Shown here piece by piece: positions 8,165 to 24,814 of a stretch of 64,000 nucleotides of DNA. Made by a program: the position numbers and the translations under genes. The stretch is from Bacteroidia bacterium (GTDB lineage: Bacteria > Bacteroidota > Bacteroidia > Bacteroidales > UBA7960): contig REEA01000095.1 in assembly GCA_007695305.1 (NCBI GenBank), positions 126-64,125 on the forward strand, in the 5' to 3' direction. Position 1 is the first letter of the stretch. Every line of letters starts with the position of its first letter. The notes beneath the pieces are model-generated. The model made no database searches, was not told the DNA's origin, and saw nothing but the letters and a program-made list of their open reading frames with translations.

Positions 8165-8342
8165 AAGGAACAACACACCCATTCGTTTCGGCAAAAAGGT
8201 CTGATTGCCAATTGTTTTCCAATCAGCCTTATTGTTATCAGGATCTGAAAACCGGCCTCAATCTTACATTGAAGCATGATCAATTTGATTACTTTTGTTC
8301 TTAATTGTGAATATCTGGTCAACACTTCTAAACCCGGTTAAC

Positions 8343-9233
8343 ATGGCAGATCACAAAAAAAAGCGTAGCATCAGGGCATTGGTTAGTATGCTGGATGAAC
8401 CGGACCCCCTTGTTTTTCGTGATATTTCCGATAAAATCCTGCATTTTGGAGAAGAAGCCATCCCCTTTCTGGAAGCGGGTTCACATGGTGCAGATAATGA
8501 TAACCTCCGGAAACGCTTTGATAACCTTATCCGCACCATACAGCGCGAGGCCGTTTTTGAAGGACTTAGCCGCTGGGCGGAAGATGATGCCGGCAATGAT
8601 CTTTTATCGGCATGGCTGCTTGTCACAAAATTACACTATCCCAATGTGAATAATGAAGACATTGGAAATGAGATCAGTACCATCCGCCGGGATGTATGGA
8701 TGGAGATGAATGAAAACCTCACCGCCCTTGAAAAGGTAAAGGTTTTTAACCATGTGTTTTATAAGATACATCAATTTCATGCCAACCTGGAAAATTACCA
8801 TGATCCGGATAATTCATTTGTGAACAGGGTTTTACAAACCCGAACCGGCAATCCCCTGAGTATTGGTATCCTGTATATGCTGGTCGCGCAAAGCCTTGAT
8901 ATGCCCATCGCGGGAATCAATCTCCCTGAACATTTTGCCCTTGCTTACCTGGGCGAAACCATTGATCCCCAAAGCATGCAAATGAAAAAGAATATGCCCC
9001 TGTTTTATATCAACGCTTTCAGTAATGGCGAAGCTTTTTCCGCAAAGGAAATCAATGATTTTTTGATTAAACTGGATCTTGAACCACTTCCTTCTTTTTT
9101 TCAACCATGCACAAATAAAGACATCATCATGCGTATGGTGAACAACCTGGTATTTGCCTATACACAAAGCAATCAGGAAGACAGAAAAATGGATATGGAA
9201 ATATTGCGCGACCGTTTAAAGAAAACCTTCTGA
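8343..9233 (+). CDS. transglutaminase-like / SirB1 (UPF0162)-like protein
   Basis: The block RTGNPLSIGILYMLVAQSLDMPIAGINLPEHF resembles the SirB1 N-terminal/transglutaminase-core2 family. The track start at 8295 is TTG, so the ATG at 8343 is preferred. Confidence 0.45.
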   Translation: MADHKKKRSIRALVSMLDEPDPLVFRDISDKILHFGEEAIPFLEAGSHGADNDNLRKRFDNLIRTIQREAVFEGLSRWAEDDAGNDLLSAWLLVTKLHYPNVNNEDIGNEISTIRRDVWMEMNENLTALEKVKVFNHVFYKIHQFHANLENYHDPDNSFVNRVLQTRTGNPLSIGILYMLVAQSLDMPIAGINLPEHFALAYLGETIDPQSMQMKKNMPLFYINAFSNGEAFSAKEINDFLIKLDLEPLPSFFQPCTNKDIIMRMVNNLVFAYTQSNQEDRKMDMEILRDRLKKTF

Positions 9234-9260
9234 CCGGTGTTTGACCGCACCGGATTTTTT
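9234..9260 (+). terminator. candidate intrinsic terminator
   Basis: CCGGTG (9234-9239) pairs with CACCGG (9248-9253) across an 8-nt loop, followed by ATTTTTTG. It sits directly after the stop codon at 9233. Confidence 0.45.
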
Positions 9261-9353
9261 GCCAAAATTATACAGGTTATTTTTCCATAGATTTTACCCC
9301 TGAATTTCAATAATAAATTCCCGTTCCGGCTATTAAATGTAAATGGTTTCCAT

Positions 9354-9361
9354 TACCTTTG
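9354..9361 (+). promoter_or_regulatory. candidate -7 box (TAnnTTTG) for the aminomutase operon
   Basis: TACCTTTG lies 64 nt upstream of the ATG at 9425. Confidence 0.4.
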
Positions 9362-9424
9362 CATGCAGATGGACAAGATTTGAATTTTTCTCAACATATT
9401 GTATAACAACAAAATAAAAGTCAA

Positions 9425-11056
9425 ATGTCTCATACCCACACATTGAATCCGTCAATTGAAGAACAGCGTCAGGAGTTTGTGCCCGCTAAAAAGCTGCACA
9501 TCGGCCTGAAAGACATCCGGAACATCATGGATCGCTATCGTTATACAGAGGATATTAAGTCTGTAATTGATCGTGAGCACCTGCTGCCCGCGGGCTTGCT
9601 TACACGGCTCCATTCGGCATATCCGCAATATTCCGGCATCATGGAATCAACCCCTTTCTTATTTACCGACAAAGAAAGATATGCAGGTATGCGCGGCTTC
9701 AGGGAAATTGTCGACATACTGGAAAAGAACGGTATCCATATCGGCCACATCAAAGAACGGGAGTTGTTTGTGGATGTATATCGTTTTTTGGCCACCAAGC
9801 ATGTCCTCAATAAAATCAACTGGAGCAATTTTGAAAAGGACTCCCTGTTTCAGCTGGTCTTTCCACAACCCGGCATGATCAGGGGCGATGTGGTTGAAGC
9901 CTACAAAGAAGCCTCTACAGACGAAGAAAAGCGCAGGATTGTCAAAGATTACCAGAAAAAAACAAATCCACATGATGGCAAACAATTGTTAAACAAACCT
10001 TGGTTTGTGAATGAGGACGGTGAGTTGGAGATACTGAGAGGCAGCCAGCATAAATATCCACAGTGCCAGCTCATTTTTGACAAAACCACACAAAACTGTT
10101 TTACATTTTGCACCTATTGCTTCCGTCATGCCCAGGTGCGCGGTGACGAAGATATGTTTGTGCAGGAGGATATTGAACAAGTGCTGGGTTATATTCGCAA
10201 ACACAAAGAGATTACCGACATGCTCATTACCGGGGGTGATGCAGGATATATCACCTTTGACCGGTTCGAAAAATACGTGCGTCCTTTTATTGAAGACGAC
10301 GAACTATTACATGTCAAAAACCTCCGTTTGGGAACAAGGGTGCTTACCTACCATCCGGAGATGATCCTAAGCAGTGATTACAACCCCTTCCTTGAATTGT
10401 ACCGCGAACTCACAGACCATGGGATCCAGGTTGTGATGATGGCACATTTTTCCACACCGAGGGAGGTGCTCAATCCATCTGCCGTGGCAGCCATTCGGCG
10501 CTTGAAATCCTATGGCGTCACCATAAAGAGCCAGAGTCCTGTGATGCATCACATCAGCCTTTTCTCCGACGAGAACGGGAAAATTGATGTTGACCGATCG
10601 GCCCGGAATTGGATCGATCTCGGAAACATACTCTCTATGCTGGGCGTGGGCTTTCACTCCATGTACTGCGCCAGGCCCACAGGAGAGCATCATTATTTCA
10701 CCGCACCGCTGGCTGATATCAACAAGGTTTTCAGCAAAGTTTACCGCACACTTCCGTCCATCAGCCGTCCATCAAGATATATCACCATGACATCCTCGGC
10801 AGGAAAAGTTTCTCTGCTTGGCACACTGGAGATAAAAGGTGAAAAATTATTTGCATTGAAGTTCAATGAAGGCCGCAATATGGAGTGGCTCGATAAAGTA
10901 TATCTGGCCAGGTACGACGAAAAGGAAAACACCATCGAGAAGCTCAAACCTTACGATGCTGACAAGTATTTCTATGAGGATGAACTGGCCGGGATAGAGC
11001 GCACCCTTGAGGAAAATCTGCAGAAGCGGATTGATGAAGAGGAAGCATCATCCTAA
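9425..11056 (+). CDS. KamA-family radical-SAM, PLP-dependent amino-acid 2,3-aminomutase-like enzyme (atypical, 543 aa)
   Basis: CX3CX2C cluster C225-FTF-C229-TY-C232 follows HKYPQCQLIFDKT (compare KamA THRYPDRVLLLITDMC). Also has a GGD SAM-binding block (ITGGDAG) and a PLP-lysine block SSAGK461 (compare KamA GGGGK337). Confidence 0.8.
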   Translation: MSHTHTLNPSIEEQRQEFVPAKKLHIGLKDIRNIMDRYRYTEDIKSVIDREHLLPAGLLTRLHSAYPQYSGIMESTPFLFTDKERYAGMRGFREIVDILEKNGIHIGHIKERELFVDVYRFLATKHVLNKINWSNFEKDSLFQLVFPQPGMIRGDVVEAYKEASTDEEKRRIVKDYQKKTNPHDGKQLLNKPWFVNEDGELEILRGSQHKYPQCQLIFDKTTQNCFTFCTYCFRHAQVRGDEDMFVQEDIEQVLGYIRKHKEITDMLITGGDAGYITFDRFEKYVRPFIEDDELLHVKNLRLGTRVLTYHPEMILSSDYNPFLELYRELTDHGIQVVMMAHFSTPREVLNPSAVAAIRRLKSYGVTIKSQSPVMHHISLFSDENGKIDVDRSARNWIDLGNILSMLGVGFHSMYCARPTGEHHYFTAPLADINKVFSKVYRTLPSISRPSRYITMTSSAGKVSLLGTLEIKGEKLFALKFNEGRNMEWLDKVYLARYDEKENTIEKLKPYDADKYFYEDELAGIERTLEENLQKRIDEEEASS

Positions 11057-11153
11057 AGGAATTATTGTCCACCGCCTGACTGGTAAATTGTTTTAAAGCC
11101 CGGGGATGTGTTGCATCCGTTTTCGGGCATATGACACATTCAAATATCCATTC

Positions 11154-11867
11154 ATGATAAACAAAATTATTCAAACACCGGCAGAGGCAGTTGCAGATGT
11201 TTTTGATGGTGCAACCGTTATGATCAGTGGCTTTGGTGAAGCCGGCAGTCCCATTGAGCTGATCCATGCTCTGATCGACAAGGGTGCGCGTGACCTTGTG
11301 GTAATCAGCAACAACACCGGCAGTGGTCATGTAGGGCTTGCCGCACTCATCGAAAACAGGCAGGTGCGTAAAATGATCTGTTCTTTTCCGCGGAGCACAA
11401 ATTCAAAGGTTTTTCCTGAGTTATACAAGCGTGGCGAAATCGAGCTGGAGCTTGTGCCCCAGGGTACTTTGGCGGAACGAATCCGGGCCGGCGGGGCAGG
11501 CATACCTGCTTTCTTTACCCCAACATCGGTAGGAACACCCCTGGCCGAAGGGAAAGAGGTACGGGAGTTTAACGGTCAGCTGTTTGTGATGGAGCATGCC
11601 ATTCGTGCAGATTTTGCCCTGGTGAAATGCCGCGCAGCCGATCGTTATGGCAATCTTGTGTACAATAAAACAGCCCGTAACTTTGGTCCGGTGATGTGTA
11701 CCGCCGCCGTAACAACCATTGTTCAGGCCAGAAAAATAGTGGAGCCCGGTCAGTTAGACCCGGAAACGGTGGTTACACCGGGGATATTTGTAAAGCGGGT
11801 GGTGGAAGTATCTAACCCGGCTGATGAGTCTAAACTTGTAGCAGAAGAGAGGAGGTATCCATGGTAA
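11154..11867 (+). CDS. 3-oxoacid CoA-transferase subunit A (ScoA/PcaI/AtoD family)
   Basis: MINKIIQTPAEAV..., SGFG, ISNN, CSFPR and VPQGTLAERIRAGGAGIPAFFTP are all family blocks. I chose the ATG at 11154 over the upstream track start. Confidence 0.88.
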   Translation: MINKIIQTPAEAVADVFDGATVMISGFGEAGSPIELIHALIDKGARDLVVISNNTGSGHVGLAALIENRQVRKMICSFPRSTNSKVFPELYKRGEIELELVPQGTLAERIRAGGAGIPAFFTPTSVGTPLAEGKEVREFNGQLFVMEHAIRADFALVKCRAADRYGNLVYNKTARNFGPVMCTAAVTTIVQARKIVEPGQLDPETVVTPGIFVKRVVEVSNPADESKLVAEERRYPW

Positions 11868-12520
11868 GCAATGCAGAAAAAATTGGCTGGGATGTTCAGG
11901 AAATGGCCCGAAAGGTAGCACTGGATATCCCTGATGGTGCCTATGTAAACCTGGGGATAGGTATTCCCGAAATGGTTTCGGGGCTTGTGCCCGAAGGCCG
12001 CGAGGTAATATACCACACCGAAAATGGCCTGCTTGGCATGGGCCCCCTGCCACCGGCCGGCGAGGAGGACCCGGAATTGATCAACGCCGGAAAAAAATGT
12101 GTCACCGCCATTCCCGGGGCCTGCTACTTCCATCACGCCGACAGCTTTACCATGATTCGCGGGAAGCATATCGACATTTGCGTGCTGGGTGCATTGCAGA
12201 TTTCCGAATCCGGTGACCTGGCAAACTGGTCAACGGGAGACGAAAAAGCCATTCCCGCCGTTGGTGGAGCCATGGACCTCGTTGCAGGCGTCAAAACCAT
12301 TTATGTCATCAGCAAACATGTCACAAAGACCGGTGAGCCCAAAATCGTGAAATCATGCACATATCCGCTAACAGGGAAAGCCGTGGTGGACCGCATCTAT
12401 ACCGATCTGGCCATCATTGATGTGACTCCTAAGGGATTATTTGTCAGGGAGATGGCGCCCGGTGTCACCATGAATTACCTTCAGGAGCGAACAGAAGCCA
12501 CCTTGCACCAGTATGAATAG
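11861..12520 (+). CDS. 3-oxoacid CoA-transferase subunit B (ScoB/PcaJ/AtoA family)
   Basis: Catalytic Glu motif YHTENGLLGMGP ((S/T)ENG). Its start overlaps the subunit A stop (ATGGTAA), and an AGAGGAGG stretch lies just upstream. Confidence 0.88.
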   Translation: MVSNAEKIGWDVQEMARKVALDIPDGAYVNLGIGIPEMVSGLVPEGREVIYHTENGLLGMGPLPPAGEEDPELINAGKKCVTAIPGACYFHHADSFTMIRGKHIDICVLGALQISESGDLANWSTGDEKAIPAVGGAMDLVAGVKTIYVISKHVTKTGEPKIVKSCTYPLTGKAVVDRIYTDLAIIDVTPKGLFVREMAPGVTMNYLQERTEATLHQYE

Positions 12521-12634
12521 CACAGATTGTTTCCCGGCCGACCGTCCATTATAAGATGACGTAAACACACCGGTTGAATCAGCCCCGGAAGCACAGGATT
12601 TTTTACTGTTTTTCAATATTTATTTTCCGAAGAC

Positions 12635-14002
12635 ATGGATATTCAAGCACTAGATTCTATCACACAAAAGAGCGCAGGCGAGGCGTTATACCGCGAAGCC
12701 TGTGAGTATATCACCGGCGGGGTAAGCCGCAACACGGTTTTCAGAAGGCCCCATCCATTTTATGCGGCCAGCGCCTCCGGTTGCTATGTTACGGATGTTG
12801 ATGGCATTCAAAGGCTGGATTTTGCCAACAATATGGCATCACTGATCCACGGGCATGCACACCCTGCTATCGTATCTGCCGTTGTGGAACAGCTGCACCG
12901 CGGTACCGCCTATACCATGGCCACTGAAGCAGAACTTGCTTTTGCCAAACTGCTCTGCCATCGTGTGCCCGGCTTCGAAAAGGTCAGATTTGTGAATTCT
13001 GGCACAGAGGCCGTTATGACAATGATCAAGGCATCACGTGCCTACACCGGAAGACCAAAGATCGCCAAAACAGAAGGAGCATATCACGGCACGTACGACT
13101 TTGCGGAAATCAGTCAAACATCCAAACCGGATCAATGGGGTGATATCAATAAACCAAACAGCGTTCCCCTGGCCTATGGCACTCCGCAGGGTGTTCTGGA
13201 TGATGTGATCATCTTTCCTTTCAACGACATTGAAAAGACCCTGAATATCCTGGATGCCCAGGCTGATCAGATTGCCTGCGTGATCATCGATCCGGTGCCG
13301 CACCGCGTTGGACTTGTGCCCGGTACGGATGCCTTCATCGAAGCATTGTACGACTGGACACGCAGGAACAATGCATTGCTGGTATTCGATGAAGTGGTTA
13401 CCTTGCGCGTTAACTACGGCGGAGCACAGGCAAGATATACTGTCAAGCCCGATATGACGGCACTCGGCAAGATCATCGGGGGAGGTTTCCCGGTTGGTGC
13501 CATAGCCGGCCGCACAGAAGTGATGCGCGTACTGGACCCGCGCGAAAAGAAAATTCTTTTCCCCCATTCGGGAACATTCTCGGCAAACCCTATCACCACA
13601 ACCGCAGGCCGCGTTGCCATGGAGCTATTCGACAAGGATGCCGTAAGCAGGTTGAACGACCTCACAAGAAAAGCCATGGACCAGATAGAAGAAGCCATCA
13701 AAATTGCTGATGTCCCTGTCTCCCTCACAGGCGCCGGCTCCATGTTCAGGATTCACCTGCGGGCAACACCTCCGCAAACATACAGGGAAGCCTATCAACC
13801 CAGGGAAGTGGTGGCGCTTATCGATGAAATACTGGATTATCTTTATCTGAATGAAAATATTATGATGATCAACACCTGCGCGTGTATGTTCTCCACACCA
13901 ATGACGCAAAAGGAAGTGGACATCCTCGCTCAGGCAATGCTCAATGTTTTCAGGCACATCAAACCAACACTGGAAAAAGTACACAAAGAGGTATATGAAT
14001 AA
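12635..14002 (+). CDS. class-III (GSAM-like) PLP aminotransferase, not a typical HemL
   Basis: PLP-lysine block ALGKIIGGGFPVGA, plus NSGTEAVMTMIKASRAYTG and FDEVVT. The N-terminal GGVSRN replaces the HemL GGVNSPVRAF. Length is 455 aa. Confidence 0.8.
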   Translation: MDIQALDSITQKSAGEALYREACEYITGGVSRNTVFRRPHPFYAASASGCYVTDVDGIQRLDFANNMASLIHGHAHPAIVSAVVEQLHRGTAYTMATEAELAFAKLLCHRVPGFEKVRFVNSGTEAVMTMIKASRAYTGRPKIAKTEGAYHGTYDFAEISQTSKPDQWGDINKPNSVPLAYGTPQGVLDDVIIFPFNDIEKTLNILDAQADQIACVIIDPVPHRVGLVPGTDAFIEALYDWTRRNNALLVFDEVVTLRVNYGGAQARYTVKPDMTALGKIIGGGFPVGAIAGRTEVMRVLDPREKKILFPHSGTFSANPITTTAGRVAMELFDKDAVSRLNDLTRKAMDQIEEAIKIADVPVSLTGAGSMFRIHLRATPPQTYREAYQPREVVALIDEILDYLYLNENIMMINTCACMFSTPMTQKEVDILAQAMLNVFRHIKPTLEKVHKEVYE

Positions 14003-15206
14003 TACAAGAGATGTTTTTATTTGTGATGCCGTGCGCACACCCGTAGGTCGTTACGGGGGCAGCCTGTCGGCCGTTCGCGCCGACGATCTGGCCGCGATCC
14101 CCGTCAAGGCCCTGACAGAAAGAAATCCCAATGTTGACTGGCTGGCACTGGATGATGTAATCCTCGGATGTGCCAACCAGGCCGGGGAAGATAACCGCAA
14201 TGTTGCCCGTATGGCACTGCTGCTGGCAGGGCTTTCGGAAACTATTCCCGGGGTTACCACAAACAGGTTGTGCGGCTCCGGCATGGATGCCCTGGGAACG
14301 GCAGCAAGAGCCATCAAAGCCGGCGAAGCAGAGTTGATCATTGCAGGAGGCGTGGAAAGCATGTCGCGTGCGCCATTTGTCATGGAGAAATCAGACAAAG
14401 CTTTTTCCAGATCAGTCAATATGTACGACACAACCATCGGTTGGCGCTTTGTCAACAAAAAAATGGATAAGCTATACGGTACAGATGCAATGATTGAAAC
14501 GGCCGAAAATATTGTTGATGATTTGAAGATCAGCCGCGAAGATCAGGACAAGTTTGCTTTTTGGAGCCAGGAAAAGGCCCACCGGGCTCAGCAAAATGGC
14601 CATCTGGCAATGGAGATTGTTCCCGTAACCATACCTCAGCGAAAGGGCGACCCCATTGTGGTTGATACGGATGAGCACCCAAGGCGAACATCACCGGAAA
14701 AGCTGGCTTCTCTGAAACCAATAGCCAGAGCAGATGGAACTGTGACTGCCGGTAACGCTTCAGGTGTTAACGACGGCGCCGCTGCCCTGCTCATAGCATC
14801 AGCCGATGCGGTTAAACGGTTCAACCTCACACCCCTGGTCAAAATATCAGGCATGTCGGTGGCTGGTGTGTTGCCAGGGATCATGGGCATGGGGCCTGTA
14901 CCGGCTACGGAAAAATTGCTGAAGCGTCTTTCCCTTCAGCTTCATGACATCGATATCATTGAGCTCAATGAAGCTTTTGCTGCGCAAGCATTGGGCTGCA
15001 CACGCACCTTTGGACTCGATGACGATGACCCGCGCATCAACCCGTGGGGTGGTGCTATCGCACTCGGCCATCCGCTGGGGATGAGCGGCGCCAGACTCGT
15101 TACTACCGCAGCGCATCAGCTGCAGCAGGGCAACGGCAAAATCGCACTGTGCACCATGTGCATCGGAGTAGGGCAGGGGATCGCCATGGTTATTGAAAAG
15201 GTTTGA
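13995..15206 (+). CDS. thiolase, PaaJ/PcaF (3-oxoadipyl-CoA thiolase)-like
   Basis: [50 protein letters not shown] (Cys nucleophile), [36 protein letters not shown] and CIGVGQG. The ATG at 13995 overlaps the upstream stop by 8 nt (ATGAATAA). Confidence 0.9.
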
Positions 15207-15321
15207 TGCTTCATGCTATAGCGTGCAAAACATTGCTATTTGCAGCCGGATCCGTAATTGATGATTGCAAAATGCAGACAAACAATGAGATAAAATCATC
15301 AAAACACAGGGTGCGAAGTCA

Positions 15322-15361
15322 GGGGAAGTAAGAAATAGATAGTAGGTAGTAGGTAGTCAGG
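15322..15361 (+). repeat. short purine-rich intergenic element (copy 1 of a GGGAAGT...GTAG...GTAGTCAGG family)
   Basis: AGGGGAAGTAAGAAATAGATAGTAGGTAGTAGGTAGTCAGG. It shares GGGAAGT at the start and GTAGTCA-GG at the end with 60297-60321, and GGGAAG..GTAAGAAGTAG with 43729-43750. Confidence 0.55.
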
Positions 15362-15372
15362 CCAGCAAGATT

Positions 15373-16494
15373 TCATCTGCTGAACCGGTGAATACTCCCC
15401 CCAATTGTGTCAGACCTCGCACCTGTTACGGATGAGAGGCAGTTAGGTAATCCCTCCATACATAACAGACCTAGGAAAGCAAAAACCAGTGCCTCCTTGA
15501 ATTCAATCAGCATTTTATGGGGAATACATATCTCTGATTTGCCGGAAACGGATGCTTTAAGCCTTTCCATAAAAAACGTATTGTATGCACCACCTCCGGT
15601 GACCAATACTCTTTTGCCCGGAGCTCCGGAAATGATGCCTGAGATTTGTGAAACAACATGGATAGTGAAAGTGTGGAGTATGTCGGGCAGAGGTATGGAT
15701 TCGGTTATCAATGGCCAAATCATTGCCTTCACCCATTCTTCACCCAGGCTTTTGGGCCCCGCCAGCTTGTAATAAGAAAGGTTGTCAAGTGCTTGCAGCA
15801 ATTCGGGGATCAGTTTTCCCGAACGTGCGATAATACCCTGAGGATCATAATCAAGGAAGCCTTCTGTTCCGGATATTTCGCCGGGATTCATGTATTGGCC
15901 GGCCGGGATCTTTGCCTGCCTGACCAGCCGGTTGATCACAAAGTTTGCCGGACAGATATCGAATGCCAGCCTTTCTCCGTCCTCTTCAAAGGAGATATTG
16001 GCAAATCCGCCAATGTTGAGGCAGTAATCATATTCGGGAAACAACAACCTGTCGCCCATCGGGACGAGGGGGGCACCCTGACCGCCATTGGCCACATCCA
16101 TGCTTCGCAAATCACTGACCACCGTCGCTCGTGCCGATGCGGCAATGGCTGCTCCATGACCGAGCTGAAAGGTGTATCCGTTGGCCGGTTCATGGAAAAC
16201 GGTGTGGCCATGACTGGAAATTAGGATATCTTGCTTAAGGTCGTTTTTTTCCCTGAAAGACCGGGCTATTTTCCCTAAGTGGTGGCCATAATCCAGGTGC
16301 AGCTTTATCAGGTCGCGTCCTCCGAGGCTTGGTGCTGATTGAAGGTGTGAAATCCAGTTAGGACTGTAGGGGGTGGTTTCTGCTGCCAGGATATCATAAG
16401 ACCACTCGCCCTCATGGCATTTGAAAGAGCAAGCTGCCAGGTCAAGACCATCAAGGGATGTCCCAGACATTAAGCCAATTACCTGGTGTGCCAT
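15373..16494 (-). CDS. anmK: anhydro-N-acetylmuramic acid kinase
   Basis: N-terminal GLMSGTSLDGLD, length 373 aa, and an ASKHA-fold pattern. Confidence 0.88.
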   Translation of the reverse strand: MAHQVIGLMSGTSLDGLDLAACSFKCHEGEWSYDILAAETTPYSPNWISHLQSAPSLGGRDLIKLHLDYGHHLGKIARSFREKNDLKQDILISSHGHTVFHEPANGYTFQLGHGAAIAASARATVVSDLRSMDVANGGQGAPLVPMGDRLLFPEYDYCLNIGGFANISFEEDGERLAFDICPANFVINRLVRQAKIPAGQYMNPGEISGTEGFLDYDPQGIIARSGKLIPELLQALDNLSYYKLAGPKSLGEEWVKAMIWPLITESIPLPDILHTFTIHVVSQISGIISGAPGKRVLVTGGGAYNTFFMERLKASVSGKSEICIPHKMLIEFKEALVFAFLGLLCMEGLPNCLSSVTGARSDTIGGSIHRFSR

Positions 16495-17991: not shown

Positions 17992-19452
17992 TTATCTTGG
18001 AGCTGCTCCGATCAGGTCCATGGCACATCTGAAGCCGATGTCGTTGGTGGCCTGATTTTCGTCGAGAAATCTGCGTGTACCCGGTGAAAGCCAGTATGAG
18101 CGGTCTTTCCAGCTCCCCCCTTTGTAAACCCTTGCAAAGTCGTTGATAAGTGTTGCGCCTTCGGGATACACTTCAAAGCCCTCAGCAATGGCGGATGCCT
18201 GATCGCCATCACGGTGCCCGATATAATCGGCCCTGCGGTAATTGAGCCTGGTTTGGTTGTCTTCTTCCCGGACAGGTTCCATCATCATCTGACCGTTTTC
18301 GTCAAACATGATGTTGCCGTCTGCATCGCGCATGGGGGTTTGAAAGATATTGCCCCTGAATGGTCTGTAGTCTGCCACCACTTCAAACGAAAGGGGGCGG
18401 TAAACATCTTTTACCCATTCATTTACGTTTCCTGCCATATCATAGAGCCCATAATCGTTTGGCCAGAATGATTTCACCGGCATGGTTATTTCACCGCCGG
18501 GATTTTGAAAGCCGGCAACGCCGGTATAATCGCCGGGGCCGCGCTGAAAGTTTGCTTTAAACTGTCCTCTGCTCCTGCGCTGGTCACTTCTCAGGTGACG
18601 GCCTTCCCACGGATATGTCCTTCGGTCGGTAATTCTCTCATCCACTGTTCCGCCAATAAGTCCGAGGGCTGCATATTCCCATTCGGCCTCGGTGGGCAGC
18701 CTGTAGCGCGGCAGGAGCAAACCATCTTCCCATCTTACACGTCTTGTGCCATCACCCCTGGGATCCAGGTCTTCCAGGTTGCGGCGCACAAGGCCTTCAT
18801 ACTGTCCTTCCAGGTAGGCCCTGGTAGTAAAGTGATTGCCTCCTTCCTGCTGGTCAAGATTCCAGTCGAGTATCCCCTCACGCACAAGGATCATTTCGTT
18901 AACACGGTCGGTGCGCCAACGCGCATAATCCATTGCCTGAACCCAGCTGACACCCACAACAGGATAATTATGGTATGCAGGATGACGGAGATAATTTTCC
19001 ACAAAAGGTTCGTTGTAAGCCAGCGGGTCACGCCATACCAGGGTGTCGGGCAGCGCATCAAAATATTTTTGCGGGTTGGTTTGCCTGAATATCCTGCTGG
19101 TCCAGAATAAATACTCCAGGTAGTCAACGTTCCTGATTTCTGTTTCATCCATAAAGAAAGATGAAACAGTAACGCGACGGGGTATATTGTTCCACTCAAA
19201 CATGATATCCTGTTCCGTCCCACCCATTACAAAAGTGCCACCTTCAACAAAAACCAGTCCGGGCCCTTTTTCCTGCAACGTATGGCTGGAAACTGCAAAA
19301 CCACCGGTTTCAGGATCATTGTATCTCCATCCGGTAGTTTGTGAGGTCTCTCTCTGGACTAAACCGCAGGCACTGAAAAACACCGTGCTTGCAAGAACTG
19401 TGAGTAAGATCGGAATGCTTCGCTTGATCTGCTTTGCCATTTGCATATGCAT
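17992..19452 (-). CDS. gldJ: gliding-motility/T9SS lipoprotein GldJ (FGE-sulfatase fold)
   Basis: Lipobox FFSAC. TGWRYNDPETGGF and GPGLVFVEGGTFVMG are GldJ-type blocks rather than GldK-type. A SUMF1-like YKGGSW is present. The gene sits next to murF, porU and porV, as I recall for Flavobacterium johnsoniae. Confidence 0.72.
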   Translation of the reverse strand: MHMQMAKQIKRSIPILLTVLASTVFFSACGLVQRETSQTTGWRYNDPETGGFAVSSHTLQEKGPGLVFVEGGTFVMGGTEQDIMFEWNNIPRRVTVSSFFMDETEIRNVDYLEYLFWTSRIFRQTNPQKYFDALPDTLVWRDPLAYNEPFVENYLRHPAYHNYPVVGVSWVQAMDYARWRTDRVNEMILVREGILDWNLDQQEGGNHFTTRAYLEGQYEGLVRRNLEDLDPRGDGTRRVRWEDGLLLPRYRLPTEAEWEYAALGLIGGTVDERITDRRTYPWEGRHLRSDQRRSRGQFKANFQRGPGDYTGVAGFQNPGGEITMPVKSFWPNDYGLYDMAGNVNEWVKDVYRPLSFEVVADYRPFRGNIFQTPMRDADGNIMFDENGQMMMEPVREEDNQTRLNYRRADYIGHRDGDQASAIAEGFEVYPEGATLINDFARVYKGGSWKDRSYWLSPGTRRFLDENQATNDIGFRCAMDLIGAAPR

Positions 19453-19477
19453 TTTAAAAATTTGGTCACAAAAATAA

Positions 19478-20449
19478 CTAAAATCTTGGATAGTTTATTA
19501 TATGCCTGCCAATATTTCTTTGCGGGCAATTGAAACGAAACGCGACACTTAGCTCATGGGTGGCATGCATTACATCGGAAAAACCCGACAAGGAATAATC
19601 ATAGCTATAGCCAATGCGGTATTCACCCATGTTGATGCCCAGCAGAAACACAATGGTATTGTTGGCTGCTGCAGGTGTTTCAATCCAGTGCCGGTACCAA
19701 ACCCCGAGCATCAAAGGCTTCGCACCTGTGTAAATCCCTCCGCTAATGTGAGAATGGGTGCCCTGGTGCTGAAAAACAATGTTTGGAGAAAAATAATAAG
19801 ACCTGCCCCGGTCGGCTCCAAACCCGGTCTGTGATCTTTCAAAATACAAACCCGCATGCGCAGTATATTTTATCGGAAGAATCGATTGCGCATCATTAAA
19901 CAAACTCATGTTGGGTTCGTTCAAATGATGGGCAGAAACACCTCCATAAAATTTTTGTGAGAAAAATAATACGCCGGCAGCCAAATCCAAACCATGCTTG
20001 TAATCGTTTTTAGGTGGCGTTTCGCCCGGATCCGCAAAATCAAATCGGTCCCAACGTGAATCATTACGGACATAACCCGCCTGTACAGCAAAATGCACAA
20101 AATGATCACCGGTAATCCTTAAATGATAGGAATAAGTTCCTGAAATCGTGTGTCGCATCATATACATGTTCGGATGATCACTGGTGATCATCAACCCAAC
20201 ACCACCCTGAAGGGCTTCAACATATTTGTCGAAGGAAAAGTTGATGGTGTGAAAATTTTCTATTGACCTTAACTGTCTGTAATTAAGAGCTATACGAGAG
20301 CATCCGGTGGAGCCGGCGAACGCCGGATTTAAGTATATGGGGGCAGCATAAAACTGGGAAAAAACAGGATCCTGTGCTAACACCATCGCAGACCGGCCAA
20401 ATGGCTGCATCATCAATAATAAGATAATTATAAGGGTGATTGGTCTCAT
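19478..20449 (-). CDS. PorP/SprF-family type IX secretion membrane protein
   Basis: The signal peptide is followed by QDPVFSQFYAAPIYLNPAFAG, the family-defining N-terminal block. The remainder is beta-barrel-like. Confidence 0.85.
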   Translation of the reverse strand: MRPITLIIILLLMMQPFGRSAMVLAQDPVFSQFYAAPIYLNPAFAGSTGCSRIALNYRQLRSIENFHTINFSFDKYVEALQGGVGLMITSDHPNMYMMRHTISGTYSYHLRITGDHFVHFAVQAGYVRNDSRWDRFDFADPGETPPKNDYKHGLDLAAGVLFFSQKFYGGVSAHHLNEPNMSLFNDAQSILPIKYTAHAGLYFERSQTGFGADRGRSYYFSPNIVFQHQGTHSHISGGIYTGAKPLMLGVWYRHWIETPAAANNTIVFLLGINMGEYRIGYSYDYSLSGFSDVMHATHELSVAFRFNCPQRNIGRHIINYPRF

Positions 20450-20687
20450 ACCTGTCTTTTCAAAAGAAAAAGCTGTATGCGTTTAAGAACGCAGATTATG
20501 CAAAAACAAATATACAATGTTTTAACTTTATTTAATTTTGATGAGGATTTGCTCGGACAGGGCATACAATGATATATACTATCACCCTGAATTGGGCGTT
20601 ATAAAATCAATTAAACTTTAGGGTCATAAATATTGTTGGTATTAGTGAAAACCTTTTGATCCTGATCTCTAAATCACAGAATCTAAG

Positions 20688-23600
20688 ATGTTCAGAAACT
20701 TACTAAAGTACTACAAAGCGTATTTTGGCTTATTTGGATTCATCATATACTCCCTGACGGCCTCTGCCGCTGTAACCGGCAGGGAAATTACCTGGCGCAA
20801 CCCGGTTCCAAACTACATCAATGAAGAAGAATACCTGGAGTCCATCTATTTTGACGGTGCCTATTATACCGATACACTGCATCACATTCCCGTTTACAGG
20901 TATCGCGTACACAACCCGGTTCCCCATTTTTCTCATCAAATTACATTAGACAACAAGGATTTTATTCCGGTTACAGGTAAGGAAGATGCCATTTTGCGGC
21001 TTTACAACTTTCACCGCGAAGAGATCATCCTGCATCATGAAATACAAAGTGCCCGCAAGAAATCATATTCTGTGGCCACTTTCTATCCTTTTGTTTATGA
21101 TTCGGCCACCGATACTTTCAAAAAACTGATTTCTTTTGATCTTTCGGCCGAACAGGTTTTTGACCATTCGCTCCAATTTATGCCCGGTGCTGATTTTGCT
21201 GAAAACTCTGTGCTTGCCAATGGCAGCTGGTACAAGATTTGTGTTGAGGAAACCGGTATTTATCGTCTGGGTTATAATGATCTTGAAGCTTTGGGCATAA
21301 ATCCCGGATCAGTACAAAAACAAAATATCCGTTTGTTTGGGAATGGCGGCGGTATGTTACCGGAGGCCAATGCAGCATTTGAGTTTAGCGACCTGAAGGA
21401 AAATGCCGTTTATGTTTCAGGTTCTGCCACCGGAACCTTTGGGCAAAATGACTACATCCTGTTCTATGGTCTCTCCCCCAATACCTGGCATGCTGAATTT
21501 TTCCCGGAAAACGATGAAAACAACGGCGAAGATGATGAGCCTTCCGGCAGATGGCTGTTCCGGCACAATGTTCACCTTTATGCCACCGAATCGTGTTACT
21601 TTATAACAACGGATCAGGGCCAGGGCAAACGAATTGAATCTGCGGGCAGTGTTCAGGATACACCGACGCACCAGGTCAGTACTTTCCGTGATTACGCATT
21701 TCATCAGCAAGATTTGGATAATCTCCTTGGTTCCGGCCGTGTATGGTTTGGTGAGGTCTTCGACGCGACCCTAAACCGGCAATTTCCGTTTGACTTTCCA
21801 AACCTGGCATCAGACGCACCAGCCACTCTGGAGGCATACCTTGCAGCCCGGGCACCTGTTGGCAGCAGCTTTACGGTGAGTGCGGGCGGTCAGCAACAAC
21901 AATTCCCCATCTTGCCCATCAATCCGGCCGATTATAACGGTTACTATGTAAGGGTAAACAACGGGTTCATGAACTTTAACCCTAATCAGCCTGACCGGGT
22001 GACGGTTAACCTGACCTATAACAGACCCGGGGCAGGCACAAGGGGTTATTTGAATTACCTGTCAGTCAACGCCGACAGGAATCTCCGCTTCTCCGGAGGC
22101 CAGATGCCATTTCGGCAGGTTGACCACATCGGCCCCGGCAAAATCGTGGAATATGTGTTGTCCGACTTTGGGCCTAACGTCACCGTGTGGGATGTTACCG
22201 ACCGATTCCATATAAAAGAGCAGCAAGTTACGCAGCAGGGTAACACCCGTCGTTTTACCCAGCCTGCCGGCAATATACGTGAGTTTATTGCTTTCGACGG
22301 CAGCACCTATCTCAGTGCGAACCTGGTGGGTCAGATCCCTAACCAGAACCTGCATGCCATGGAATCATCAGATTTGATCATTGTGAGCCCCGAAAAACTG
22401 ATTCCAGCTGCAGAGCGACTTGCCCAATACAGAAGAGATAATAACGGACTGACCGTGACCATCGTAACTACCGATCAGGTTTATCATGAGTTTTCTTCAG
22501 GAAGCCCCGACATTTCTGCCATCAGAAACTTCCTGCGTATGTTTTACGAAAGGGCCGGCACACCCGACCAGATGCCCGCATATTTGCTGTTGTTTGGCAA
22601 TGGAACATACGATAACAAGGACCTCCTCGGGTTTGGCGGCAATCTGATTCCAACCTACCAGAGTTACGCATCCATTTCCTTTCGCGCCTCATACATGACT
22701 GATGATTACTTCGGGCTGCTCGGTGAAAACGAAGGCCAGGATGCCGCTGGTGTTGTGGATATCGGCATCGGTCGTTTTCCCGTGCGCACACTGGAACAGG
22801 CCGAAATGCTCGTGGATAAAACCATTCGCTATGAAAAACGGATTCCGGGTATGGAGCCCGGCGAAGATAACCTGGACTTTACAGGTGTAGTGTCTAATTA
22901 TGCAGACTGGCGAAACAATGTGGTTTTTGTGGCTGACGACGGTGATAACAACACACATTTTTTGCATGCAGAGGAATTTGCTGACGAACTGCAGGCAAAC
23001 CATCCTCAATATAACATTCAGAAAATTTATCTCGACGCTTATCAGCAGGTTACGCTGGCCGGTGGACTACGTTACCCGGATGTGAACCGTGCCATCAACG
23101 AAGCAGTAAACAGAGGTGTCTTACTCATTAATTATATCGGACATGGAGGCAAACGTGGTTTGGCACAACAGAGGGTGTTGACGTTTGAAGACATTGCCGG
23201 ATGGAACAATAAGTACAATATGCCGGTATTTATGACCGCCACCTGTGAATTCAGCAGCTTCGACCATCCTGATCCGGACGATCTTTATGCAGGTGTACGC
23301 ATCGTTCTGAAACCGATAGGCGGTACCGTTGCCTTGTTTACAACCACACGACTTGCTTGGTCAGGAAACAATAAAACCCTGAATGCTAACTTCATGGAGA
23401 CCATGTTCTCTGCAGATGCTGACGGCAATAACTACCGGATGGGCGATCTTATCCGCATCGCAAAAGAGAAAAGCAGCGGGGTGAGCCTGCCTATGCAGTT
23501 GCGTAACTTTGTGCTCCTTGGTGACCCTTCCATGCAAATGGCTTTTCCCGAACACCGCGTTGTTACGGAGCACATGCCCGATACCTTAAGGGCCTTCCAG

Positions 23601-24602
23601 GAAGTAACCGTGTCGGGTTATGTGACAGATATTTATGGAAACAAACTCCAGAACTATAACGGTGTCCTTTTTCCAACCATTTACGATAAAGAAGAAACCT
23701 TCAGGACGCTGGGCAACAACCAGGGAAGCCATCCCAGAGACTTTAACATGCGTAATTCCGTTTTATACAGGGGAAAGGCAAGCATTCATGATGGTGAGTT
23801 TTCCTTCACATTTATGGTACCGCGCGACATTGCCTACAATTATGGCAGCGGCAGGATCAGCTATTATATGGACGATGGACAAGCGGATGGCCATGGGTTT
23901 TATGAAAACTTCATCATCGGTGGCACCCTCGACAATTTTACACCCGATCATGAAGGCCCGGTTATCGACCTGTACATGAATGACACCACTTTTGTGTCGG
24001 GCGACTATACCAATGAAAACCCCATATTGCTTGCCTTCCTTTATGATGAAAGTGGCATCAATATGACCGGTAGCATTGGCCATGACATTGTTGCCTATCT
24101 CAACAATTCAGGCGATCCCATCAGGTTGACCAATTACTATGAAGCCGCTATGGACACCTACAAAAGCGGGAGGGTTGTTTATCCTTTCTTTAACCTGGAA
24201 GATGGTCATCACACACTGCTCATGCGTGCATGGGATATCCATAACAATCCATCAACGGCCAGTATAGACTTTGTGGTGAGTAGTGCCGGTCGTATTGTAC
24301 TCGGGGATCTGATGAATTATCCGAATCCGTTTTCATACGATACCTGGTTCACTTTCAAACACAACCAGGCTTTCAATGAACTGGACGTACGCATCGATAT
24401 TTATGATTTACAGGGTCGCCTTGTAAACACCATTAAAGAACGTGTTTCTTCGGCTGGCTTTCAGTCTGCACCCATCCACTGGGACGGAGTGAGCAACGAC
24501 GGTCGTCTGCTTGGTAATGGTATTTATCTATACAGGCTGACGCTGAGAACCCCTTCCGGGGAAAGAAGCAGGCAAACCGAAAAACTGGTTATTTTCCGCT
24601 GA
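20688..24602 (+). CDS. porU: type IX secretion system sortase PorU (C25-like peptidase with CTD)
   Basis: 1304 aa. Gingipain-like His/Cys region (INYIGHGG ... FMTATCEFSSF) and a C-terminal T9SS sorting domain (NYPNPFS...IYLYRLTL...). Confidence 0.9.
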   Translation: MFRNLLKYYKAYFGLFGFIIYSLTASAAVTGREITWRNPVPNYINEEEYLESIYFDGAYYTDTLHHIPVYRYRVHNPVPHFSHQITLDNKDFIPVTGKEDAILRLYNFHREEIILHHEIQSARKKSYSVATFYPFVYDSATDTFKKLISFDLSAEQVFDHSLQFMPGADFAENSVLANGSWYKICVEETGIYRLGYNDLEALGINPGSVQKQNIRLFGNGGGMLPEANAAFEFSDLKENAVYVSGSATGTFGQNDYILFYGLSPNTWHAEFFPENDENNGEDDEPSGRWLFRHNVHLYATESCYFITTDQGQGKRIESAGSVQDTPTHQVSTFRDYAFHQQDLDNLLGSGRVWFGEVFDATLNRQFPFDFPNLASDAPATLEAYLAARAPVGSSFTVSAGGQQQQFPILPINPADYNGYYVRVNNGFMNFNPNQPDRVTVNLTYNRPGAGTRGYLNYLSVNADRNLRFSGGQMPFRQVDHIGPGKIVEYVLSDFGPNVTVWDVTDRFHIKEQQVTQQGNTRRFTQPAGNIREFIAFDGSTYLSANLVGQIPNQNLHAMESSDLIIVSPEKLIPAAERLAQYRRDNNGLTVTIVTTDQVYHEFSSGSPDISAIRNFLRMFYERAGTPDQMPAYLLLFGNGTYDNKDLLGFGGNLIPTYQSYASISFRASYMTDDYFGLLGENEGQDAAGVVDIGIGRFPVRTLEQAEMLVDKTIRYEKRIPGMEPGEDNLDFTGVVSNYADWRNNVVFVADDGDNNTHFLHAEEFADELQANHPQYNIQKIYLDAYQQVTLAGGLRYPDVNRAINEAVNRGVLLINYIGHGGKRGLAQQRVLTFEDIAGWNNKYNMPVFMTATCEFSSFDHPDPDDLYAGVRIVLKPIGGTVALFTTTRLAWSGNNKTLNANFMETMFSADADGNNYRMGDLIRIAKEKSSGVSLPMQLRNFVLLGDPSMQMAFPEHRVVTEHMPDTLRAFQEVTVSGYVTDIYGNKLQNYNGVLFPTIYDKEETFRTLGNNQGSHPRDFNMRNSVLYRGKASIHDGEFSFTFMVPRDIAYNYGSGRISYYMDDGQADGHGFYENFIIGGTLDNFTPDHEGPVIDLYMNDTTFVSGDYTNENPILLAFLYDESGINMTGSIGHDIVAYLNNSGDPIRLTNYYEAAMDTYKSGRVVYPFFNLEDGHHTLLMRAWDIHNNPSTASIDFVVSSAGRIVLGDLMNYPNPFSYDTWFTFKHNQAFNELDVRIDIYDLQGRLVNTIKERVSSAGFQSAPIHWDGVSNDGRLLGNGIYLYRLTLRTPSGERSRQTEKLVIFR

Positions 24603-24717
24603 TGGCGGCAACCAAAACAGATATATGAATGTGAACAATGTCTATAGAATATACAGACCACCATCGCAGATAAAATTTTATGGAAGCGTTGGTGCAATAT
24701 GGTATTTTAAAATTCGT

Positions 24718-24725
24718 TATATTTG
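24718..24725 (+). promoter_or_regulatory. candidate -7 box (TAnnTTTG) upstream of porV
   Basis: TATATTTG lies about 90 nt upstream of the ATG at 24815. Confidence 0.35.
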
Positions 24726-24814
24726 CGGTCTTTTAAAAAACTCCTCATGCAATTATTTGCATTACAAATTGTTTCTGGTTCGTTTCTTAACAAATCAATC
24801 TAAATAATCGATCA

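Follow-up and report, generated by a model that had tools for sequence, protein, structure and literature searches.

A conserved five-gene operon of Bacteroidota and further phyla predicted to link 2-aminoadipate breakdown to the lower beta-ketoadipate pathway

Introduction

L-2-Aminoadipate is a product of lysine breakdown via saccharopine or L-piperideine-6-carboxylate. In lysine catabolism of Pseudomonas putida it is converted via 2-oxoadipate and D-2-hydroxyglutarate (by HglS) to 2-oxoglutarate (by YdiJ), and to our knowledge either the O2-dependent HglS or an oxidative decarboxylation to glutaryl-coenzyme A (CoA) is required wherever 2-amino- or 2-oxoadipate is known to be broken down. 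How strict or facultative anaerobes equipped with saccharopine-pathway genes finish the catabolism of lysine is not obvious. The present work deals with five co-directional genes (9425-15206, plus strand) on a 64,000-nt stretch of DNA from an uncultured Bacteroidia bacterium of the lineage UBA7960 (contig REEA01000095.1, positions 126 to 64,125; hereafter the window). The genes encode a radical S-adenosylmethionine (SAM)/pyridoxal 5'-phosphate (PLP) aminomutase-like protein, both subunits of a 3-oxoacid CoA-transferase, a class III transaminase, and a thiolase, and together they offer a complete and testable answer.

In this study, we analyzed the five genes of the window together with related loci from other genomes. 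They almost certainly form a genuine, conserved and functional operon. Its best reading, which we consider probable, is a pathway from 2-aminoadipate via 3-aminoadipate and 3-oxoadipate to succinyl-CoA and acetyl-CoA. The chances appear evenly balanced that gene 1 encodes the first natural 2-aminoadipate 2,3-aminomutase, that 3-aminoadipate is a true metabolite, and that the operon belongs to an undescribed route from saccharopine to beta-ketoadipate. What we infer from sequence comprises all substrates, the flux direction and which of the second and third steps comes first; CoA transfer could also precede transamination. The enzyme families are all known; novelty appears to lie in the class of substrate used by the aminomutase clade and in the architecture of the pathway.

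Materials and methods

The set of related loci comprised 52 loci from a genome scan and seven from context look-ups; 57 of them carry an orthologue of gene 1. Only loci whose sequence extends 4.7 kb or more beyond the gene-1 orthologue on its downstream side entered the synteny count (n = 40). For the neighbour survey, all open reading frames (ORFs) of the related loci were clustered and the recurrent ones annotated. Gene 1 was aligned by MAFFT with lysine 2,3-aminomutase (KamA) of Clostridium subterminale, the two being bridged by a 431-aa paralogue from Draconibacterium (locus L051). The KamA sequence in this alignment was checked only by its landmark numbering and by a by-eye match to residues 106-263 as given in the output of the profile alignments.

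The gene of the acyl-CoA beta-transaminase Kat (CLOAM0809), for which cloning primers were published (Perret et al. 2011; PMC3149608), was recovered from metagenome contigs, which were searched with the forward primer. The recovered loci carry the reverse primer, too.

Results and discussion

Operon structure and conservation across phyla

The five ORFs described in an initial annotation of the window were all present at the positions listed in Table 1, and so were the two start/stop overlaps described there, ATGGTAA at 11861 between the CoA-transferase subunits and ATGAATAA at 13995 between transaminase and thiolase. For genes 2 and 5 internal starts (11154 and 13995) had been preferred to the longest ORFs, and alignment with the family models speaks for this choice: residues 1-221 of gene 2 then correspond to positions 1-221 of TIGR02429, and residue 5 of gene 5 to position 1 of TIGR02430. 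The orthologues of subunit A in other genomes likewise start with MINK.

The two CoA-transferase genes and the transaminase gene follow the gene-1 orthologue in this order and on the same strand in all 40 loci counted, and the thiolase gene is also in order in 33 of the 40. The synteny of the five genes, a check proposed along with the initial annotation, is therewith conserved across phyla, and those of its proposed checks that were run all favour its reading. Carriers belong to about ten phyla and include Bacteroidota, Cloacimonadota, Acidobacteriota, Eisenbacteria, Ignavibacteria, Chlorobiota, Actinobacteria, and Neomarinimicrobiota as well as a metagenome-assembled genome (MAG) labelled as Deltaproteobacteria, a Clostridia MAG, and an Edwardsbacteria MAG. 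Among them are the cultured Draconibacterium orientale DSM 25947, D. aestuarii, Maribellus luteus, and M. mangrovi, which make the pathway testable in culture.

The loci with a deviating thiolase fall into three kinds. In two Thermoanaerobaculia loci (L026, L036) the thiolase gene lies on the opposite side of the operon and its product shares only 53% identity; in L063 the gene is split; and in L041, L043, L044, and L049 (Actinobacteria, Deltaproteobacteria-labelled, and Acidobacteriota) no thiolase gene comes after the transaminase gene. In lineages without an in-order thiolase, an enzyme encoded at another place in the genome may take over the last step.

CoA-transferase and thiolase

The annotation of genes 2 and 3 as a CoA-transferase is borne out by the PcaIJ/ScoAB family models, which both subunits pass (subunit A: TIGR02429, 351.6 bits, cut-off 128.5; subunit B: TIGR02428, 296.6 bits, cut-off 243.55), although these models do not separate PcaIJ from ScoAB, i.e. 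3-oxoadipate from acetoacetate as substrate. The AtoD model was not passed (201.8 bits, cut-off 315), and the closest solved structures are succinyl-CoA:3-ketoacid CoA-transferases.

With 680.9 bits on the PcaF equivalog model TIGR02430 (cut-off 597) and 694.8 bits on the subfamily model NF006551 (cut-off 605), the thiolase exceeds both cut-offs; the acetoacetyl-CoA thiolase models are not passed. Its placement nearer to PaaJ/PcaF than to AtoB/Thl, made by eye at first, is thereby upheld, and the four peptides quoted for it were all found in the translation. The top solved relative is 8gqh ("Thiolase"), and ranks 2 to 4 are taken by beta-ketoadipyl-CoA thiolases (6pca-6pcd). Judged by these models and relatives, genes 2, 3, and 5 encode the enzyme pair typical of the lower beta-ketoadipate pathway.

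Relation of gene 1 to lysine 2,3-aminomutase

The product of gene 1 belongs to a tight clade with at least 56% identity across phyla, which is related to KamA. Its initial label "KamA-family" stands as far as fold and motif are concerned, while family membership in the strict sense does not, for the protein stays below every curated cut-off. The KamA family model TIGR00238 gave 80.8 bits (cut-off 199.2) with only residues 205-378 aligned, and the equivalog models for lysine (TIGR03820; 60.6 bits, cut-off 525.4), glutamate (TIGR04368; 64.2 bits, cut-off 650), and arginine 2,3-aminomutases and for EpmB all failed with 54-64 bits against cut-offs of 369-650. By these thresholds, gene 1 is a divergent KamA relative and not a member of the family.

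An AlphaFold model of gene 1 (pLDDT 73, pTM 0.78) was compared with the PDB by Foldseek, and KamA (2a5h) was the sole match with E < 1e-3 (E = 5e-11, 433 columns). The superposition covers essentially the whole KamA chain with a TM-score of 0.58, normalised to KamA length, at about 18% identity. A CxxxCxxC motif, CFTFCTYC, is located at residues 225-232, and 117 of the 120 closest homologues have a motif of this form; together with others such as SSAGK it is nearly invariant among the 120. In the bridged MAFFT alignment with KamA, the cysteines of CFTFCTYC align with C125, C129, and C132 of KamA. In the same alignment, R234 corresponds to R134 and K461, in the invariant SSAGK, to K337, which we take to be the residue binding the alpha-carboxylate and the PLP lysine of KamA, respectively. 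Also by this alignment, A416 and T454 occupy the positions of D293 and D330, so that both Asp would be replaced; in work of Lepore et al. from 2005 these two residues of KamA are said to hold the epsilon-ammonium group of lysine. No counterparts of the C-terminal Zn-site cysteines of KamA (C268, C375, C377, C380) were found in the gene 1 alignment. With phmmer, hmmsearch, and hhalign, residues 204-375 of gene 1 align to KamA 106-263 only. On sequence and model together, gene 1 looks like a 2,3-aminomutase, though not one for lysine.

The loss of the two Asp would suit a dicarboxylate substrate, and glutamate is one candidate. The operon would then convert glutamate via beta-glutamate, 3-oxoglutarate, and 3-oxoglutaryl-CoA to malonyl-CoA and acetyl-CoA. 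Glutamate is plentiful in protein-degrading anaerobes, and a radical-SAM glutamate 2,3-aminomutase exists; the enzyme of Clostridioides difficile was reportedly described by Ruzicka and Frey in 2007 as a KamA-family protein with an acidic substrate in which the two lysine-binding Asp are replaced. A glutamate shunt is decidedly unlikely in our view, however: gene 1 reaches only a tenth of the glutamate equivalog cut-off (64 vs 650 bits) and differs from this enzyme in length, domains, and its C6 context, the thiolase is PcaF at the equivalog level, and no recurrent neighbour handles malonyl-CoA or C5 compounds, whereas those described below handle C6/C7 2-oxo and 2-amino acids.

In a library clustered at 50% identity, P0121 was the sole near-full-length match to gene 1 with more than 41% identity, besides many short fragments. 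The nearest non-orthologous relative, P0124, shares 41% identity and stands in an unrelated gene context; farther off, paralogues with a length of about 420 aa make up a broad family. The Draconibacterium genome of locus L051 carries a second KamA-like paralogue (L051:9923-11218; 431 aa, 31% identity to gene 1), which adjoins mreB-mreC-mrdA-rodA on the downstream side. It represents a large family of about 410-470 aa with an N-terminal INWSNFEKD...FPQ motif and a C-terminal beta-domain, and all members of this family are below the KamA-family cut-offs, too.

The transaminase and the comparison with Kat

Gene 4 had been annotated as a class III transaminase similar to glutamate-1-semialdehyde aminomutase (GSAM). 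Class III was borne out, and HemL itself is excluded by the hemL model TIGR00713 (332.3 bits, cut-off 527.3). The closest solved relative is 6k8h with 389 bits, followed by ForI and then by GSAMs and beta-phenylalanine transaminases; GSAM structures reach at most 227 bits. The entry 6k8h is an omega-transaminase of Sphaerobacter thermophilus which has been used on beta- and gamma-amino acids (PMC10589169). Such relatives fit a free beta-amino acid as substrate of the transaminase.

Kat, which likewise is "HemL-like" and adjoins a thiolase, opens up another explanation, namely that the variant pathway of lysine fermentation is encoded in separate parts. Gene 1 would be a lysine 2,3-aminomutase, KamDE, Kdd, and Kce would be encoded elsewhere in the genome, and the later steps would consist of a Kat-like action on 3-aminobutyryl-CoA, activation of acetoacetate, and thiolysis of acetoacetyl-CoA. 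All four downstream enzyme types are present in the Kat variant pathway (PMC3149608). The recovered Kat has 414 aa (MAEKLKLA...EVKKML) and shares 28% identity (149 bits) with the transaminase of the window, compared to 72-74% for the latter's own orthologues in Cloacimonadota. Orthology with Kat, on which the initial annotation had let its own reading depend, is ruled out by these values. Furthermore, the thiolase next to Kat is 40% identical to that of the window, and no homologue of gene 1 was found at the recovered Kat locus. Because of the low identities of transaminase and thiolase and the lack of a gene-1 homologue at this locus, the operon is not the Kat branch of lysine fermentation.

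The missing lysine-fermentation partners point in the same direction. Of the 45 ORFs of the window, about 40 were scanned against Pfam, and none of these showed a domain of the KamDE, Kdd, Kce, or Kal type; for them the initial statement of absence holds. No kamDE/kdd/kce-type domain, including B12-binding, KamD, and BKACE domains, was found in seven Pfam-annotated related loci either, and no recurrent cluster of lysine-fermentation neighbours occurs among the 52 loci; the search did not extend to whole genomes. Since this explanation also has to cope with a gene 1 that, by the bridged alignment, lacks both lysine-binding Asp and scores 60.6 against 525 bits on the lysine model, and with a thiolase that passes the PcaF model and not those of acetoacetyl-CoA thiolases, we regard a split lysine fermentation, its later steps included, as very improbable.

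In Cloacimonas-like digester bacteria (L056:1170-5590), the genes of the thiolase, Kat, and CTP synthase are found in this order, without an adjoining CoA-transferase or aminomutase gene.

Neighbouring genes in other lineages as clues to the substrate

In related loci, several recurrent neighbours of the operon were identified which make or consume 2-aminoadipate or 2-oxoadipate. L-Piperideine-6-carboxylate dehydrogenase (NF050084, 802 bits, cut-off 730) is encoded in 13 loci, mostly of Marinilabiliales. Its gene lies 3' of the thiolase gene on the same strand in 12 of the 13, with a gap of 31 bp in L023; the 13th, L031, is a short contig on which the thiolase gene is not in view. A gene of the saccharopine dehydrogenase family comes after it, and in most such loci a second copy is located upstream. 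In L025, an AlaDh_PNT-type gene resembling lysine-ketoglutarate reductase is inserted between the two. A saccharopine dehydrogenase gene and an AlaDh_PNT-type, lysine-ketoglutarate-reductase-like gene are also found in the Cloacimonadota locus L013, immediately 5' of gene 1 on the same strand.

A second set of neighbours includes homoaconitase-type genes. In Neomarinimicrobiota (L042, 3960-9141), genes for homoaconitase (TIGR00139, 681 bits, cut-off 530) and a homoisocitrate-dehydrogenase-like protein are located upstream of the operon. In a Clostridia MAG (L011:15719-20813) and an Edwardsbacteria MAG (L061:15748-21563), downstream modules contain a homoisocitrate-dehydrogenase-like gene, a gene resembling 3-hydroxy-3-methylglutaryl-CoA (HMG-CoA) lyase, a family III CoA-transferase gene, and genes for large and small subunits of the homoaconitase type. 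In L061, the HMG-CoA-lyase-like protein and the family III CoA-transferase are fused (744 aa). The fusion hints at a joint action of CoA-transferase and lyase on an acid resembling homocitrate, possibly as a "homocitryl-CoA lyase"; we know of no described activity of this kind.

In a third set, which was seen in one lineage (L053:13278-18025 and L066:16369-21112), the operon is followed by genes for a lipoate-protein ligase, a short HGLS/DUF1338-family protein (PF07063; about 270 aa), a 972-aa FAD/Fe-S protein, and CstA. HglS, which converts 2-oxoadipate, belongs to PF07063. For the 972-aa protein, the D-2-hydroxyglutarate dehydrogenase YdiJ came out as the top match, with a score below the cut-off. 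An O2-dependent HglS-type enzyme beside a radical-SAM operon is an odd pairing.

Several distinct sets of neighbouring genes all point to the C6 compounds 2-amino- and 2-oxoadipate, and the preference for a conversion of L-2-aminoadipate to 3-oxoadipate expressed in the initial annotation is backed by them. In addition, a gene for a PuuR-like regulator (helix-turn-helix and cupin domains, about 184 aa) is located directly 5' of the operon in several unrelated lineages (Table 1); this regulator, which is absent from the window, is a candidate sensor of the pathway substrate.

The same neighbours bear on a short route via beta-lysine, in which lysine would be converted via beta-lysine and 3-oxo-6-aminohexanoate to the CoA ester and then to acetyl-CoA and 4-aminobutyryl-CoA. 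The relation of gene 1 to KamA, a self-contained chemistry, and the lysine-linked saccharopine dehydrogenases next to the operon in some genomes would suit it. Yet because the neighbouring genes turn lysine into 2-aminoadipate, they would compete with such a route and not feed it; moreover, in the alignment the positions of D293 and D330 are taken by Ala and Thr, and thiolase and transferase are of the dicarboxylate type (PcaF/PcaIJ). We judge this route quite improbable.

Another amino acid might also be the substrate, such as 2-aminopimelate, which would yield glutaryl-CoA and acetyl-CoA, leucine via beta-leucine, or arginine; or else gene 1 might be no aminomutase at all and catalyze another radical-SAM reaction, with the downstream genes using an acetoacetate-like 3-oxoacid. 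Such explanations draw on the failure of gene 1 at all curated KamA-family thresholds and on the neighbouring Iso_dh genes, whose best matches are methanogen enzymes of the AksF type, which also act on longer homologues. They must, however, account for the piperideine-6-carboxylate dehydrogenase, which passes an equivalog cut-off and whose product is specifically 2-aminoadipate. A gene 1 without aminomutase function is at odds with the KamA fold and with the conserved residues that probably are the PLP lysine and the alpha-carboxylate arginine, and the invariant position of the transaminase in the operon argues for an amino acid as intermediate. Taken together, we consider these possibilities rather unlikely.

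Proposed pathway

In the pathway from 2-aminoadipate, which we prefer, gene 1 would shift the amino group of L-2-aminoadipate from C2 to C3, giving 3-aminoadipate. The class III transaminase would then use a 2-oxo acid as amino acceptor, which is probably 2-oxoglutarate but might be 2-oxoadipate, and release 3-oxoadipate. The PcaIJ-type CoA-transferase would form 3-oxoadipyl-CoA with succinyl-CoA as donor, and the PcaF-type thiolase would split it into succinyl-CoA and acetyl-CoA; as the thiolase would release succinyl-CoA, the CoA donor would be regenerated. In sum, 2-aminoadipate, 2-oxoglutarate, and CoA would yield glutamate, succinate, and acetyl-CoA, with no need for oxygen, no oxidative decarboxylation, and no loss of carbon. 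The route would thereby complete an anaerobic breakdown of lysine via saccharopine or piperideine-6-carboxylate.

Several points weigh against this reading. We infer the substrate from the gene neighbourhood and the downstream enzymes, and PcaF/PaaJ-type thiolases as well as ScoAB-type transferases are promiscuous and can take other 3-oxoacyl substrates, which equally favours the other amino acids considered above. In the window itself, no gene for saccharopine or piperideine-6-carboxylate dehydrogenase was found in the 64 kb by tblastn, and here as in the closest relatives the operon lies amid housekeeping genes. The other neighbours described above are likewise absent from the window, where the operon stands by itself. 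The saccharopine link represents few independent events, because it occurs mainly in Marinilabiliales plus Cloacimonadota. In gene 1, the matches to D293, D330, and K337 rest on one bridged MAFFT alignment because the sequence and profile alignments end at KamA residue 263, and the active-site loops of the model (residues 204-246 and 416-424) are of low confidence. R417, beside the D293 position, was tried as a binder of the distal carboxylate and rejected; it is not specific evidence for such a group, because Arg at this position is also common in non-orthologous paralogues.

As thiolase, CoA-transferase, transaminase, and aminomutase reactions are reversible in principle, the operon might also run in the biosynthetic direction, from succinyl-CoA and acetyl-CoA via 3-oxoadipate and 3-aminoadipate to 2-aminoadipate, for lysine or secondary metabolites. 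The window, however, encodes DapB, so lysine is made by the diaminopimelate route and a biosynthetic role of the operon is unlikely. The neighbouring piperideine-6-carboxylate dehydrogenase, saccharopine dehydrogenase, HGLS, and YdiJ-like proteins are catabolic, and 2-oxoadipate would already be available from homoaconitase and homoisocitrate dehydrogenase where these are encoded nearby. With all this considered, biosynthesis appears extremely unlikely.

For the lineages with homoaconitase-type and homoisocitrate-dehydrogenase-like genes, a further speculation may be added to the proposed pathway. There, 3-aminoadipate could pass its amino group on to 2-oxoadipate by way of the transaminase, which would amount to a net shift of the carbonyl group on adipate from the 2-oxo to the 3-oxo position. 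Combined with 2-oxoacid chain extension, such a shift would bypass the step from 2-oxoglutarate to succinyl-CoA. The module of HMG-CoA-lyase-like protein and CoA-transferase, present in two of the three homoaconitase lineages, could have a role here that is likewise speculative.

Relation to known systems

With KamA (2A5H; TIGR00238), gene 1 shares the fold, the CxxxCxxC motif, and the predicted type of reaction, a 2,3 amino shift; the bridged alignment adds a putative alpha-carboxylate arginine and a putative Gly-Lys PLP motif. It differs in its length (543 vs 416 aa) owing to a long N-terminal helical extension, in a different C-terminal beta-domain, in the missing Zn-site cysteines, in the replacement of D293/D330 by Ala/Thr according to the alignment, and in wholly different operon partners. 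The lower beta-ketoadipate pathway (PcaIJ and PcaF) has the models of genes 2, 3, and 5 and the succinyl-CoA loop in common with the operon. There, 3-oxoadipate originates from aerobic cleavage of aromatic rings, whereas in the proposed pathway it would be formed in anaerobes from an amino acid by aminomutase and transaminase. The P. putida route shares the entry metabolite, and HGLS-family and YdiJ-like genes adjoin the operon in L053 and L066; HglS needs O2 and loses a carbon, whereas the proposed route would be O2-free, keep all six carbons, and end in succinyl-CoA and acetyl-CoA.

A HemL-like class III beta-transaminase, an adjacent thiolase, and a link to lysine are shared with the Kat variant of lysine fermentation (PMC3149608), from which the operon differs in the sequences of both enzymes, in its intermediates, and in the lack of kamDE, kdd, and kce in the loci scanned. 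The closest solved relatives of the transaminase, the omega-transaminases of Sphaerobacter thermophilus (6K8H), Mesorhizobium (2YKU), and Variovorax (4AO9), act on free beta-amino acids (PMC10589169). Their substrates are aromatic or aliphatic and no operon context is known for them, whereas a dicarboxylic beta-amino acid is predicted here. In the full-text literature, with subscription journals and patents outside the coverage, no description of a 3-aminoadipate or aminoadipate-aminomutase route was found; 3-aminoadipic acid turned up in the literature searched only in analytical or meteorite papers and in one citation misprint.

If the proposed pathway is true, the saccharopine pathway would be joined to the lower beta-ketoadipate pathway in an oxygen-independent and carbon-conserving way, and the small set of characterised radical-SAM aminomutases would gain a new substrate. 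Widespread labels would have to be corrected, namely "lysine 2,3-aminomutase", "hypothetical protein", and "glutamate-1-semialdehyde aminomutase", which were met in the homologue lists of gene 1 and of the transaminase. Natural enzymes linking amino-acid chemistry with that of adipate and 3-oxoadipate would also be of use for bio-based C6 diacids.

Non-coding elements

The positions of genes and non-coding elements are compiled in Table 1. The terminator-like hairpin to which the initial annotation had assigned the end of the upstream gene directly follows the stop codon of a transglutaminase-like gene (8295-9233); it is predicted to close this gene and to isolate the operon. The promoter box of the type TAnnTTTG in front of gene 1 is present and kept in relatives, although by itself the motif lacks significance (64 copies in the window, 47.5 expected). 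Of the six related upstream regions compared, five (L001-L005) have ATTAnnTTTGCA equally far from the ATG; in L033 it is not evident. In these upstream regions of soda-lake Bacteroidales (window 9330-9420 and its equivalents in L001-L005), AATGTCAATGGATTC immediately 5' of the TAnnTTTG box and AACAnATTGTAAAACAGCTAAAT in the 5'-untranslated region are conserved as well. Both could be operator or leader elements.

Table 1. Genes of the operon, non-coding elements, and regulator genes at related loci
Feature	Position	Strand	Remark
Terminator-like hairpin and T-run	9234-9253	+	7-bp stem with 5 GC pairs, then ATTTTTTG
TAccTTTG, Bacteroidota-type -7 promoter box	9354-9361	+	64 nt before the first ATG
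Gene 1, radical-SAM/PLP aminomutase-like protein, 543 aa	9425-11056	+	Predicted 2-aminoadipate 2,3-aminomutase
Small hairpin in the intergenic region of genes 1 and 2	11098-11128	+	In centroid fold; no T-run after it; doubtful significance
Gene 2, 3-oxoacid CoA-transferase subunit A, PcaI/ScoA family	11154-11867	+	TIGR02429
Gene 3, 3-oxoacid CoA-transferase subunit B, PcaJ/ScoB family	11861-12520	+	TIGR02428
Gene 4, class III (GSAM-like) aminotransferase	12635-14002	+	Predicted 3-aminoadipate (beta-amino acid) transaminase
Gene 5, 3-oxoadipyl-CoA thiolase, PcaF/PaaJ type	13995-15206	+	TIGR02430, NF006551
PuuR-like regulator at related loci	L062:9415-9966; L042:9440-9994; L019:9408-9962; L021:9371-9925	Same as operon	

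The hairpin between genes 1 and 2, also part of the initial annotation, does form in the predicted fold. As a meaningful element it was rejected: the folding of the intergenic region is no better than that of shuffled sequence (z = -0.6). A scan of 9000-15500 against Rfam gave no match up to an E-value of 1, and therefore no known riboswitch is present there. A scan for sigma-70 promoters showed no enrichment (7 sites vs 7.8 expected); the sigma-70 consensus is not relevant to promoters of Bacteroidota.

Surroundings of the operon in the window

Upstream of the operon, genes for phosphoglucomutase, Mfd, fructose-1,6-bisphosphatase, CinA, uridine phosphorylase, and the transglutaminase-like protein were found. 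Downstream, genes for AnmK, MurF, GldJ, PorP, a C25 peptidase, and PorV follow, and farther downstream those for RecQ, phosphoenolpyruvate carboxykinase (PEPCK), resistance-nodulation-division (RND) efflux proteins, GuaA, FtsK, DapB, and ParAB. The region 17992-26029 represents a type IX secretion and gliding cluster with gldJ, porP/sprF, the gene of a 1304-aa C25 (gingipain/PorU-like) peptidase, and porV, which confirms the origin from Bacteroidota.

The PEPCK ORF (32541-34823, minus strand) is with 760 aa unusually long for an ATP-dependent PEPCK. Its PEPCK_ATP domain comprises residues 27-499 only, and about 260 C-terminal residues are without a Pfam match. The gene at 57140-60178 (minus strand) encodes a 1012-aa protein in which a GH3 (NagZ-like) domain is fused to a domain with beta-lactamase fold. 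Because of this fusion and of AnmK and MurF near the operon, the region is rich in genes for cell-wall recycling.

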